The translations under genes and the position numbers were made by a program. Shown one piece after another: positions 20,611-29,287 of a DNA stretch of 64,000 nt. Below the pieces are notes generated by a model, which did no database searches, was not told the DNA's origin, and saw only the letters and a program-made list of their open reading frames with translations. Origin of the DNA: Escherichia coli (GTDB lineage Bacteria > Pseudomonadota > Gammaproteobacteria > Enterobacterales > Enterobacteriaceae). The stretch is taken from NCBI RefSeq assembly GCF_016026235.1, contig NZ_CP065613.1, one strand, 5' to 3'. The first letter of the stretch is position 1. Each line of letters begins with the position of its first letter.

Positions 20611-22203
20611 CTATAACCCAGGCGCTTTCCATAACGACGTCGTCAGTCCATGATCAACCAGCCCCAGCTGATCCTGATAAACTGCCTGCCACTTATCGCG
20701 TGAATCCTGATAAAGTTCATGCTTTTCCGGGTCTGGTGTGTGCGTCCGTTCCCAGCGAACCAGGCGTTCTCCGGTTTCTGCCATTGATGAAAAAATTCCG
20801 GCACCGACGCCAGCTGCAATGGCACATCCTAATGCGGTGGCTTCTTTGACCACCGGAATATTGACGGGTAATCCCGAGACATCAGCGAGAATTTGGCTCC
20901 ATAATTTCCCTTTTGAACCTCCGCCTGCAAAGACTAACGATGAAGGATGAATATTCGAGAAATCAGCAATTTGCTGCAAGTTACACGCTGATACAATCGC
21001 CGCATTTTCTTCCAGCGCACGGAACAATGTCGCTTTGTTACATTTATCCGGGTCAATGGACAAGTTAATAAAGGAAGGCGCAGCGTGATACCAGGTTTTA
21101 AAGCGCATTCTGTCGGAGAAGATCGGCATTACGCCCCACGACCCAGGCGGCACCCTACTGGCCATCTCTTCCAGCAGCGTATAGGTGTCGATGCCTAAAC
21201 GTTCGGCAATCAGTTTTTCTTCGGCACAGAAAGCATCGCGGAACCAGCGCATGGTGAGTCCGGTAAAAAAGCTTATAGATTCAGCTTGTACCATGCCAGG
21301 AATAACATGGGGATTAACGCGCACGTTCATTTCTGGGTCTGTCACCGGCGCGGCTAAGTTTACAACTTGCTGCCAGAATGTGCCGCCAAGAACCGCGGTT
21401 TGTGCCGGACGCACAACGCCTAACCCCAGGCAACCAAGCTGCACATCGCCTCCTCCCACGACCACAGGAGTGCCCGCCTTCAGACCGCAGAGTTCCGCCG
21501 CTTGTGAACTTACCACGCCCAGCAATGTGCCGGTTTCTTTGACAGGAGAAAGAATATCGGCACGCAGGCCAGCCATATCCAGCAATGCAGGTTTCCAGTC
21601 ACGGGTGGTTAGATCAAGAAGTCCCGTGGTGCCAGCGTTAGAGGGATCCACCGCCAGTTCGCCGCTGAGCATATAGGCCAGCCAGTCGCTGATCATGGTG
21701 ATAGTTGATGCCTGACGGTAAATATCGGAACGATGGTGCGCCAGCCAAAGTAATCTGGGGATGGCACTTAAAGCCAGTGTTTGTCCGGTCGCGCGATAAA
21801 CTTCGTTTTCAAAGGTATTGTTGTGCAGTTCTTTAAGTTCGCTAACTTCGCGCGCCGCTCTGGCATCCACATTGGCGCAGGCCCAGATCGGTGTTCCTTC
21901 ATTGTTATATAAAACAATGCCTTCACGCATCGAACATGCCGAAACGGCAGCGATATACTCCGGGGCTATGCCGGCGTTGTGCAACGCCTGGCGCATACAC
22001 TCACACGCCAGTTGCCAGTTTTTGTTGAGATCAAATTCCATAGAACCAGGAACGTCCGGTACTGCCAGATGCCGCCACTCCGCCTGTCCCACTGCTATTT
22101 GATTGCCTTCCAGGTCGAATATCACAGCCCGAATACTTCCGGTGCCTGCATCCAGCGCCATCAGGTAGTACTTTGATTCTGAAGGGGTAAAGAGTCGAGC
22201 CAT
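20611..22203 (-). CDS. lsrK: autoinducer-2 kinase
   Basis: 530-aa FGGY-family carbohydrate kinase [33 protein letters not shown]... Confidence 0.9.
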
Positions 22204-22281
22204 TAGATTATCCTCGGCTTATGCGTTCTGTCTGTTCCTCTATACGTTCTCCATCATTCCCGGTAATAAGGTCATGCAAAT

Positions 22282-23235
22282 TTAACTACGTAAAATCGCC
22301 GCTGCTGTGTCCTGATCGGTAACCAGTGCGTTGATATAACCGCCTTTCATTGCAGCGGCAATTGCTTCGGCTTTATTTTCTCCCCCTGCCACGCCAACCC
22401 GGACGGGTATGGTCTTCAGCGCGCTTAAAGGTAAGCCAATCTGTTCGTTATGTATTTTGATATCCGTGACAACGTCACCTTTTGCATCAAAAAAGTAGCC
22501 TAAAATGTCGCCAACCGCCCCTTTTCGGCCAATCATTAACTGTTCGCCCTGGCTGATATAACCGGAGCGAATGATCGTCGCGTCGTCCTGTTGACTGACG
22601 GCCCCAATGCCGACAATCGCCACATCCGCTGCTTGCGCGGCTAACAGAACATCTTTGACGCAATTTTCATTTTTTAGCGTACGGGCAATGTCAGCGGAGG
22701 ATGCCCGCAACGGAGCTGGAATAATATTCACACTGCACGCCGCGTTAAGCTGCCCGATACCCGTCATATAAGAACCGACGCCACCGGAGAGCGTGACCAG
22801 GCGAATTTGCTGTGACGAAATAAAACCACTTAAGCGTTGCAGCGTATTCATGGTTGCCTCGCCAAAACCAATCGCCAGCATCTGTTGTGGTTGAAGTAAA
22901 CTCATCAACATATGCGCCGCGCCTATCCCTAGTCGCCCGCCGACATCAGCATCCGCAAGCCCAGGGATCACCCGGACATGTTGCAGCGAAAACTGACGAC
23001 GTAATTGTGTTTCATATTCCAGACAGCCTTCAAAGCGAGAATTAATCTGCACGCGAATAATGCCGGACTGATGCCCTTTCTCCAGCAATCGCGACACTTT
23101 CAAACGTGTCAGGCCGAGACGATCGCTGATCTCACTCTGGGTCAGCCCGTCGTGGTAGTAAAACCACGCGATCCGCGCGACCTGTTCTTCTTCACACATT
23201 CCCTGTTCTGAAATTGCCGAATCGTTGATTGTCAT
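22282..23235 (-). CDS. lsrR: lsr operon repressor (SorC/DeoR-like)
   Basis: 317-aa ORF with N-terminal HTH, divergent from lsrA. Confidence 0.9.
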
Positions 23236-23483
23236 AATTCATTCTTCACTTTGAACATATTTAAATCTTTAATGCAATTGTTCAGTTCTTGCGCATTTAT
23301 ATCTGTGATGGCAACCACAGTTTGACTCTACGAGCATGAACAAACGCAACCGTGAAAATCAAAATAGCATAAATTGTGATCTATTCGTCGGAAATATGTG
23401 CAATGTCCACCTAAGGTTATGAACAAAATAAAAGCAGAAATACATTTGTTCAAAACTCACCTGCAAAACTGAACGGGAGAAAT

Positions 23484-25021
23484 ATGCAAACGAGTGATAC
23501 CCGCGCGTTACCGCTACTTTGCGCCCGCTCGGTTTATAAACAGTATTCAGGGGTCAATGTCCTGAAAGGCATCGATTTTACGTTGCATCAGGGGGAGGTC
23601 CACGCCCTGCTCGGCGGCAATGGTGCCGGTAAATCGACGTTAATGAAGATTATTGCCGGTATTACCCCTGCTGATAGCGGTACGCTGGAGATTGGGGGCA
23701 GCAACTACACCAGATTAACGCCAGTTCATGCTCATCAGCTGGGTATTTATCTCGTTCCCCAGGAACCGCTGCTTTTCCCAAGCCTGTCGATAAAAGAAAA
23801 CATCCTGTTTGGGCTGGCAAAAAAACAGCTCTCCATGCAGAAAATGAAGAACTTGCTGGCGGCGCTGGGCTGCCAGTTTGATCTGCATAGTCTGGCAGGA
23901 TCGCTGGATGTCGCCGATCGCCAAATGGTGGAAATCCTCCGCGGGCTGATGCGCGACTCGCGGATTCTGATCCTCGATGAACCTACCGCCTCGCTTACCC
24001 CTGCGGAAACCGAACGCTTGTTTAGTCGCTTGCAAGAGCTGCTTGCTACTGGCGTGGGTATTGTTTTTATCTCGCATAAGCTGCCGGAAATTCGCCAGAT
24101 TGCCGATCGAATTAGCGTGATGCGCGACGGAACCATCGCCTTAAGCGGCAAAACCAGCGAACTGTCTACCGACGACATTATTCAGGCCATCACGCCAGTG
24201 GTACGGGAAAAATCGCTCTCTGCCAGCCAAAAATTATGGCTGGAGTTACCTGGTAACCGCCCACAACATGCCGCCGGAACGCCGGTGCTGACACTGGAAA
24301 ATCTGACTGGCGAAGGTTTCAGGAATGTCAGCCTGAGACGCTCAATGCCGGAGAAATTCTGGGTCTGGCTGGGCTGGTGGGTGCCGGACGCACAGAACTG
24401 GCCGAGACGCTCTATGGTCTACGTACTTTGCGTGGCGGACGCATTATGCTGAATGATAAAGAGATCAATAGATTCTCCACTGGAGAACGTTTACTGCGCG
24501 GTCTGGTTTATCTGCCGGAAGATCGCCAGTCATCCGGACTGAATCTCGATGCTTCGCTGGCGTGGAATGTCTGCGCCCTTACTCATAACCTTCGTGGATT
24601 CTGGGCGAAAACCGCGAAAGATAATGCCACCCTGGAACGATATCGTCGGGCGCTGAATATTAAATTTAACCAACCGGAACAAGCTGCACGGACATTATCC
24701 GGTGGCAACCAGCAAAAAATCCTCATTGCCAAATGCCTGGAAGCCTCGCCGCAAGTATTGATAGTCGATGAGCCGACGCGCGGCGTGGATGTCTCGGCCC
24801 GTAATGATATCTACCAACTGTTGCGCAGCATCGCCGCACAGAATGTGGCTGTGCTGCTTATCTCCTCTGATCTGGAAGAGATCGAACTGATGGCAGATCG
24901 TGTGTATGTGATGCATCAGGGCGAAATTACCCACTCTGCACTGACCGGGCGCGATATTAATGTCGAGACTATTATGCGCGTTGCCTTCGGCGATAGTCAG
25001 CGTCAGGAGGCGTCATGCTGA
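23484..25021 (+). pseudogene. lsrA: AI-2 ABC transporter ATPase gene lsrA with frameshift between the two nucleotide-binding domains
   Basis: Two overlapping ORFs (23484..24452 and 24377..25021) in different frames; first has Walker [10 protein letters not shown], second restores [12 protein letters not shown] only in the +2 frame; 2 extra bases at about 24336..24337. Confidence 0.8.
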
Positions 25022-28071: not shown

Positions 28072-28097
28072 TGTGCATTACTTAACCGGAGTAAGTT

Positions 28098-28973
28098 ATG
28101 GCAGATTTAGACGATATTAAAGATGGTAAAGATTTTCGTACCGATCAACCGCAACAAAATATCCCTTTTACCCTGAAAGGTTGCGGTGCGCTGGATTGGG
28201 GAATGCAGTCACGCTTATCGCGGATATTTAATCCGAAAACGGGTAAAACCGTGATGCTGGCCTTTGATCATGGTTATTTTCAGGGGCCAACTACCGGACT
28301 TGAACGCATTGATATAAATATCGCCCCGCTGTTTGAATATGCCGATGTATTAATGTGTACGCGCGGCATTTTGCGCAGCGTAGTCCCCCCGGCGACCAAT
28401 AAGCCGGTAGTACTGCGGGCGTCTGGTGCGAACTCTATTCTGGCGGAATTAAGTAATGAAGCCGTGGCGTTATCGATGGATGACGCCGTGCGCCTGAACA
28501 GTTGCGCGGTGGCGGCGCAGGTTTATATCGGCAGCGAATATGAACATCAGTCGATCAAAAATATTATTCAGCTGGTCGATGCCGGAATGAAAGTGGGAAT
28601 GCCGACCATGGCCGTGACTGGCGTGGGCAAAGATATGGTGCGCGATCAGCGTTATTTCTCGCTCGCGACCCGAATCGCCGCTGAAATGGGGGCGCAGATT
28701 ATCAAAACCTATTATGTCGATAAAGGTTTTGAACGGATTGTTGCCGGATGTCCGGTACCCATTGTTATTGCTGGCGGTAAAAAATTACCGGAGCGCGAGG
28801 CGCTGGAAATGTGCTGGCAGGCTATCGATCAGGGCGCTTCTGGTGTGGATATGGGGCGTAATATTTTCCAGTCTGACCATCCGGTGGCGATGATGAAAGC
28901 CGTACAGGCGGTGGTTCACCATAACGAAACGGCTGATCGGGCATATGAACTCTATCTGAGTGAAAAACAGTAA
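28098..28973 (+). CDS. lsrF: aldolase-family thiolase acting on phospho-AI-2 derivative
   Basis: 291-aa ORF, class I aldolase-like. Confidence 0.9.
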
Positions 28974-28996
28974 CTGCGGATTTAAGGAGAAGAATT

Positions 28997-29287
28997 ATGC
29001 ACGTCACACTGGTTGAAATTAACGTTCATGAAGACAAGGTTGACGAGTTTATCGAAGTTTTTCGCCAGAACCACCTGGGCTCTGTACAGGAAGAAGGCAA
29101 TTTGCGCTTCGATGTCTTACAGGACCCGGAAGTGAATTCGCGCTTTTATATCTACGAAGCCTATAAAGATGAAGACGCAGTGGCGTTCCATAAAACCACG
29201 CCCCACTACAAAACCTGTGTCGCGAAACTGGAATCTTTAATGACCGGGCCGCGTAAAAAACGTCTGTTCAATGGGTTGATGCCGTGA
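28997..29287 (+). CDS. lsrG: phospho-AI-2 isomerase
   Basis: 96-aa ORF, antibiotic-biosynthesis-monooxygenase-like fold family. Confidence 0.9.

Follow-up and report, generated by a model that had tools for sequence, protein, structure and literature searches.

Two apparently recent dinucleotide duplications in lsrA and lsrD of an enteroinvasive Escherichia coli clone: a probable early stage of lsr decay

Background

The lsr genes of Escherichia coli specify an importer for autoinducer-2 (AI-2), LsrACDB, together with the kinase LsrK, the repressor LsrR and the processing enzymes LsrF and LsrG, and they are frequently lost. In the survey of Brito et al. (2013, PMC3595036), a complete lsr operon was found in 38% of 44 genomes and at least eight independent losses were counted; luxS was present in every strain studied. 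Decay of lsr was described there as fast and without a fixed gene order, and small indels of 1-2 bp were among the routes to inactivation (6 of 34 lsr pseudogenes). No Shigella or adherent-invasive E. coli (AIEC) strain had the full operon (P = 0.048), loss of lsr was reported as associated with strains replicating within macrophages, and the authors argued for balancing selection. Here we describe the lsr locus at positions 20611-29287 of a 64,000-nucleotide stretch of E. coli DNA (contig NZ_CP065613.1), referred to below as the window, in which the ATPase gene lsrA and the permease gene lsrD are frameshifted and the other six lsr genes have intact reading frames.

The closest described genotypes are those of two enterotoxigenic E. 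coli (ETEC) strains, O139:H28 E24377A and UMNK88, in which LsrACDB is likewise impaired and lsrK and lsrR are present; for these strains Brito et al. predict that AI-2 internalization is slower, not abolished (PMC3595036). Apart from these two, the natural lsr-incomplete strains of that study lack a functional lsrK, and their pseudogenes are mostly large truncations (PMC3595036). The lsr genes have also been lost from Shigella, AIEC and most B2/extraintestinal pathogenic E. coli (B2/ExPEC). In K-12, for which Brito et al. constructed each of the single lsr knockouts, those of lsrA, lsrC, lsrD or lsrB only make AI-2 removal less efficient, loss of lsrK is the one single knockout that abolishes internalization, and lsr knockouts carry little or no growth cost (PMC3595036). 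In strain 83972, fitness falls when lsr is restored (PMC12263705). According to the current model (bioRxiv 10.64898/2026.06.09.730415), AI-2 first comes in via a low-affinity route and is converted by LsrK to phospho-AI-2, which relieves LsrR; LsrB doubles in chemotaxis with Tsr. The passage of Ha et al. that cites Pereira et al. (2012) gives phosphorylated enzyme I of the phosphotransferase system (PTS) as required in initial AI-2 uptake. A full-text literature search for lsr in enteroinvasive E. coli (EIEC) gave no report, returning Brito et al. 2013 and general reviews.

Frameshifts in lsrA and lsrD

The lsr locus of the window is complete, bounded by the lsrK stop and the lsrG stop. Its gene order follows that of annotated E. 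coli loci, to which it shows about 98.9% nucleotide identity: lsrK-lsrR is divergent from lsrA-C-D-B-F-G, and a yneO-type autotransporter and tam are the flanking genes. When window positions 20000-30000 were aligned base by base with E. coli O145:H28 RM12761, which together with K-12 served as the reference for gene lengths, 110 substitutions and 2 indels were found, and both indels are +2 in the window. One lies in lsrA and the other in lsrD, so that the features of the locus are as follows (lengths in amino acids, aa).

20611-22203, minus strand: lsrK, AI-2 kinase, intact, 530 aa, with the Pfam domains FGGY_N and FGGY_C
22282-23235, minus strand: lsrR, SorC-type repressor, reading frame intact with missense L265Q, 317 aa, Pfam domain confirmed
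23236-23483: lsrR-lsrA divergent promoter/operator region, conserved, 3 differences from K-12 in 248 bp
23484-25021, plus strand: lsrA pseudogene, ATPase, +2 duplication at codon 284
25015-26043, plus strand: lsrC, permease, intact, 342 aa
26043-27037, plus strand: lsrD pseudogene, permease, +2 duplication at codon 275
27049-28071, plus strand: lsrB, periplasmic AI-2 binding protein, intact, 340 aa
28098-28973, plus strand: lsrF, thiolase, intact, 291 aa
28997-29287, plus strand: lsrG, phospho-AI-2 isomerase, intact, 96 aa, identical to K-12

The lsrA duplication, at codon 284 of 511, turns GA into GAGA at 24335-24338. The shifted frame ends at a TGA at 24450-24452, giving an open reading frame (ORF) of 322 aa from the normal start as compared to 511. 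This product retains the first ABC domain only (Pfam ABC_tran, residues 27-169), and the out-of-frame stretch replaces 20 residues that make up the first strand and the Walker A motif of the second nucleotide-binding domain (NBD2). Downstream, the longest ORF in the original frame runs from 24377 to 25021 with a GTG start that falls within the NBD2 Walker A motif, and this fragment matches the ABC profile from position 21 onward. Of the two ABC nucleotide-binding domains of an intact LsrA, the first ORF thus supplies NBD1 alone. If the 2 extra bases are removed, all 511 codons can be read with no stop. An in-frame ATG at 24446 overlaps the region of the new TGA as a possible restart; coupled restart there might limit polarity on lsrC, lsrB, lsrF and lsrG. 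The genes lsrB, lsrF and lsrG lie downstream of both frameshifts and may suffer polarity.

Other lsrA frameshift alleles are present in the public data. One of these (P0015, 323 aa) is shifted after TLNAG and occurs in 40 contigs, including a 4.63-Mb chromosome; a further allele (P0002) encodes 278 aa. Since these are independent alleles, lsrA has been hit repeatedly in E. coli.

The lsrD duplication, at codon 275 of 330, turns AG into AGAG at 26867-26870. The shifted frame ends at 26961-26963, and the product has 306 aa as compared to 330. Its match to the Pfam family BPD_transp_2 ends at profile position 238 of 269, with the loss of positions 239-269, and the last hydrophobic segment (about residues 288-313) is missing. 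Of the two permeases, LsrC is therefore intact at 342 aa and LsrD is frameshifted. Removal of the 2 extra bases gives a protein 100% identical to K-12 LsrD. Taken together, the predicted products strongly suggest that LsrACDB importer function has been lost through the lesions in LsrA and LsrD, and the high-affinity importer should be non-functional.

To this extent the preliminary description of the locus, which was made from the window alone and listed lsrA and lsrD as frameshifted and lsrK, lsrR, lsrC, lsrB, lsrF and lsrG as full length, agrees with our comparison: a +2 duplication was found in each of the former, and the lengths of the latter six equal those in RM12761 and K-12. When 37 conserved window genes were compared from the reference start codon, lsrA and lsrD were the only ones frameshifted. 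A general background of pseudogenes in the window was considered and rejected, as none of the 35 other conserved genes is disrupted when read from the reference start. For two frameshifts placed at random, the chance that both fall in lsrACDB is p ~0.018 and that both fall in the lsr locus p ~0.058.

Distribution of the two insertions

Over 12,969 bp, the window matches JTCO01000035.1 at 100% identity; this contig belongs to an Illumina MiSeq draft of EIEC O143:H26 strain 4608-58, reported to be of phylogroup E and to carry the invasion plasmid pINV and ipaH copies (PMC4319576). By this identity, the window sequence belongs to an enteroinvasive lineage, the O143:H26 clone of 4608-58. The truncated proteins recur in the public data in contigs from different samples, 23 for lsrA and 21 for lsrD. 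The same frameshift alleles are found in the independent read-run assemblies ERR926423, ERR9828666, SRR13627083 and GCA_902503985.1; in those of ERR926423 and SRR13627083 both genes are frameshifted, and each shows a single substitution in the locus relative to the window. The exact truncated proteins have database entries too, STL95479.1 and STL95492.1, both from a 4.56-Mb contig; we take the STL accession range to be that of the long-read NCTC 3000 project.

Probes of 301 bp centered on the two sites were compared to 5,426 complete RefSeq E. coli genomes, and neither insertion was found in any of them. The lsrA probe was matched in 4,181 of the 5,426, and the best complete-genome matches to both probes all span 299 bp. 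Because none of these genomes has them, both insertions are private to this clone and do not represent a common allele.

Order and age of the lesions

The loci retrieved from the clone differ in which lesions they carry. In L007 (GCA_902503985.1) and one contig grouped with it, lsrA has the frameshift and lsrD is intact at 330 aa. Both places shown with the lsrD frameshift have the lsrA frameshift as well, and 19 more contigs were grouped as similar. Loci L007 and L005 also keep 17 bp of the neighboring autotransporter pseudogene that are lost, by a deletion at 17923, in the window and JTCO01. From this distribution, the lsrA break probably preceded the lsrD break, with the two events nested inside a single tight clone. 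By sequence comparison both lesions are very recent, because repaired LsrD equals K-12 LsrD, repaired LsrA contains no stop, and 0-2 substitutions per 10 kb separate the window from its clone mates. Given this recency, intact reading frames in the remaining lsr genes are expected by default.

Substitutions elsewhere in the locus

Changes derived on the window branch were polarized with RM12761 and K-12. Besides the two duplications, they comprise a synonymous lsrK change at 21156, the lsrR missense change L265Q and, in the Shine-Dalgarno sequence of lsrA, a replacement of G by A. LsrK differs from the K-12 protein by L7P and A104T. The L265Q change (window position 22442) lies in the SorC-type sugar-binding domain of LsrR; the LsrR protein matches PDB entry 4l5i with E = 4e-202. 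An 81-bp segment around 22442 had no 100% match among the 3,137 complete E. coli genomes that have the segment. In 129 family representatives the residue at position 265 is mostly V, L, I or T, with some R and A, so the position is mostly aliphatic but variable. The preliminary description of the repressor as intact thus holds only for its reading frame of 317 aa. In the promoter/operator region, considered as a possible further site of damage, a single base among the 3 differences from K-12 is lineage specific: the G to A change at 23478, 6 nt upstream of the lsrA start, which converts GGGGG to GGGAG. Within the clone, further missense changes are seen in genes that were thought to be retained, namely lsrR G161E in locus L005 and lsrF A242T in locus L008.

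Comparison with FDAARGOS_943

The closest complete genome is that of FDAARGOS_943 (NZ_CP065615.1), which is 99.87-99.99% identical to the window over shared segments. Both have an insertion of the insertion sequence (IS) element IS2 in the fimbrial gene ydeQ, and lsr is defective in both. However, FDAARGOS_943 has neither 2-bp duplication, and its lsr locus was broken independently. A 9.2-kb deletion (window 11801-20978) starts in hipA and reaches into lsrK, which loses its 3' end with the last 122 codons; lsrK also has a 1-bp deletion at window position 22172, and lsrC has a 15-bp in-frame deletion (window 25602-25616). In the coordinates of this genome (L002), the lsr damage is at 22650-24210 and 27606. 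The predicted phenotype of FDAARGOS_943 is that AI-2 is not internalized.

Differences between the two genomes are concentrated in lsr, which makes up 24% of the compared sequence: it holds 10 of 21 differences (p ~0.015) and 4 of 5 small indels (p ~0.013). Damage is thus accumulating in lsr in both sister lineages, a pattern to be expected if selection on Lsr function is relaxed or negative in this clade.

FDAARGOS_943 also has a 155-kb IncFII plasmid, the first 40 kb of which are IS-rich and contain phoC and a truncated gene for a NEL-type E3 ligase. This plasmid content suggests, without being proof of it, an EIEC-related background.

Interpretation and alternatives

The explanation that we consider likely is that, in the EIEC O143:H26 clone of 4608-58, the high-affinity LsrACDB importer was knocked out by two recent and real dinucleotide duplications. 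The lsrA lesion would have come first, taking out the second nucleotide-binding domain, and the lsrD lesion would have followed inside the lsrA-mutant clone, taking out the last transmembrane segment. The locus would then stand at an early stage of the stepwise lsr decay already documented in E. coli and Shigella, with the six other genes intact for want of time and not demonstrably through selection. By extension from the K-12 knockouts, AI-2 would still be made and would be cleared slowly, and the positive feedback driven by import would be missing; AI-2 arriving by the low-affinity route would still be phosphorylated by LsrK, and LsrR relieved.

The genotype class, in which the transporter is defective and the lsrK and lsrR ORFs are intact, is already described in the two ETEC strains (PMC3595036). 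What is new here is another instance, in an EIEC clone and at an early, ordered stage. The window differs from E24377A and UMNK88 in pathotype and lineage, and its lesions are GA to GAGA in lsrA and AG to AGAG in lsrD; the likeness, taken from the published description of those strains, is one of genotype class. Like Shigella and AIEC, the window represents an invasive pathovar without a complete lsr system, but unlike most natural lsr-incomplete strains it has all eight lsr genes and an intact lsrK, which places it at a much earlier stage. The expected functional equivalents are the engineered K-12 lsrA, lsrC, lsrD and lsrB knockouts, with slower AI-2 removal and normal growth. These are clean deletions, whereas the window has two frameshifts, with possible polarity on lsrC, lsrB, lsrF and lsrG, and in addition LsrR L265Q.

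The artefact and working-transporter alternatives concern whether the importer is broken at all. It could be proposed that both +2 insertions are errors of this assembly, in particular as the truncated proteins bear STL accessions on a 4.56-Mb contig and long-read assemblies may hold indel errors. The chance of this is negligible: the alleles recur in the MiSeq assembly of 4608-58 and in the independent read-run assemblies, neither site has a homopolymer context, and the 35 other conserved window genes are free of frameshifts. Sequencing error, named in the preliminary description as what would overturn it, was therefore ruled out. It is very improbable that the transporter still works, with LsrA made as two separately translated halves or by ribosomal recoding and a truncated LsrD tolerated. 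Coupled re-initiation is conceivable in view of the overlap between the lsrA TGA and the in-frame ATG at 24446. Yet a restart in the original frame at the GTG at 24377 or at that ATG would lack the first strand of NBD2 and all or part of Walker A, there is no slippery or homopolymeric context for recoding, and the last LsrD transmembrane helix is lost. A split or recoded functional LsrA was thus ruled out on sequence grounds.

A different question is why the other genes remain intact. The preliminary description held that import had been inactivated selectively, and on that reading LsrK, LsrR, LsrB, LsrF and LsrG would be kept by selection for roles that do not depend on import; such roles could be LsrB-Tsr chemotaxis and the processing of AI-2 entering by another route. 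The six intact ORFs agree with this, as do the reported chemotactic role of LsrB and the low-affinity route feeding LsrK (bioRxiv 10.64898/2026.06.09.730415), and ETEC strains of the same genotype class exist (PMC3595036). Nevertheless, we think it improbable. The lesions are too recent for the other genes to have decayed, so that intactness carries no information. Given two hits within lsr, the chance that both fall in lsrA, lsrC or lsrD is p ~0.18 and that both fall in lsrACDB p ~0.30, neither of which is significant. Substitutions within the clone in the supposedly retained genes are mostly missense (L265Q, G161E and A242T, as against two synonymous changes), the sister lineage FDAARGOS_943 has lost lsrK and not the transporter, and lsrB, lsrF and lsrG, as noted above, may be affected by polarity. 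Two further claims, that the strain could not internalize the signal and that it is a quorum-sensing non-responder, also go too far. The K-12 lsrA, lsrC, lsrD and lsrB knockouts only slow AI-2 removal, and it is the lsrK knockout that abolishes it (PMC3595036); as LsrK and LsrR are present, LsrK can still phosphorylate AI-2 that comes in by the low-affinity route, and LsrR can be relieved by it. A selective cause can also be sought for the loss itself: inactivation of Lsr may have been favored in the invasive lineage, either in an intracellular niche or because a "signal-blind emitter" avoids the cost of lsr expression. The sister lineages would then be parallel selected knockouts, and such an account differs from that of recent stepwise decay in the selective cause only. 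It is possible but on the unlikely side. Independent lsr lesions in two lineages about 0.1% apart and the enrichment of indels in lsr speak for it, as do the absence of a full operon from all Shigella and AIEC, for which balancing selection was argued (Brito et al., PMC3595036), and the lowered fitness of 83972 with restored lsr (PMC12263705). Relaxed selection, however, predicts the same enrichment, and the counts are small; one hit would suffice for an adaptive knockout, so the second, in lsrD, fits neutral follow-on decay better; and K-12 lsr knockouts have little or no growth cost (PMC3595036).

Several points weigh against the account of recent stepwise importer loss that we favor. Slow uptake is extrapolated from K-12 knockouts, and luxS is located outside the window. 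LsrR L265Q could change the regulatory outcome. The order of the lesions rests on one retrieved locus (L007) and one grouped contig, and precise reversion of the lsrD duplication in the L007 branch could in principle have occurred instead. The clustering statistics rest on small counts, with a test chosen after the data were seen, and with a handful of substitutions neutral decay and selection for loss cannot be told apart.

The clone adds one more natural E. coli lineage to the established picture of conserved AI-2 production with labile Lsr-based reception, and with it the association of invasive pathovars with lsr loss now includes an EIEC clone; on its own this matters little. It has modest value as an unusually early, ordered snapshot of decay, in which lsrA and then lsrD were hit and none of the eight genes is yet missing. 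Together with the kinase-broken sister lineage, it offers near-isogenic natural strains for the study of AI-2 clearance, LsrR derepression and LsrB-dependent chemotaxis. A bolder proposal is that selection drove parallel losses of AI-2 reception in the EIEC O143 clade just as the invasive lifestyle began. It draws on the different routes taken by two sister lineages about 0.1% apart, lsrA then lsrD in one and a deletion and a frameshift in lsrK plus a deletion in lsrC in the other, and on the concentration of indels in lsr, and we consider it unlikely. Were it true that selection drove the loss, lsr would behave in intracellular E. coli as a costly or "antivirulence" locus, and the clone would be a natural isogenic series (lsrA-only, lsrA plus lsrD, lsrK-null) for testing the antivirulence idea.

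Neighboring regions of the window

Signs of EIEC/Shigella-type decay are found near lsr in the form of IS2 in ydeQ, an IS110-family element in the autotransporter pseudogene and a truncated dgcF-like gene. The IS2 copy occupies 4356-5686 and includes an InsD-type ORF (4770-5675, 301 aa); its insertion in ydeQ predates the split of the lineages, because it is also present in FDAARGOS_943. The autotransporter pseudogene, of the ECSE_1600 family (yneO-like), extends from 13161 to 19917 and is broken by the IS110-family element at about 14745-16197, which has a transposase ORF of 398 aa (14975-16171). The dgcF/yneF-like gene for a GGDEF diguanylate cyclase has an ORF of only 398 aa (32895-34091). 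It is annotated with an internal stop in FDAARGOS_943 and as frameshifted in RM12761, so that in the window, too, it is probably a pseudogene.

Between marB and eamA there is a 6.3-kb island (42699-48970) with genes for a 6-phospho-beta-glucosidase, a carbohydrate porin, cellobiose-type PTS IIA, IIC and IIB components and a GntR regulator. RM12761 lacks this island, and in FDAARGOS_943 an IS1 element disrupts it. Colinearity with RM12761 stops at about 61161, the site of a prophage in that genome. The remainder of the window (61162-64000) contains an ORF without an NCBIfam match at 63047-63622 and a serine-recombinase/invertase-like ORF at 62359-62949.

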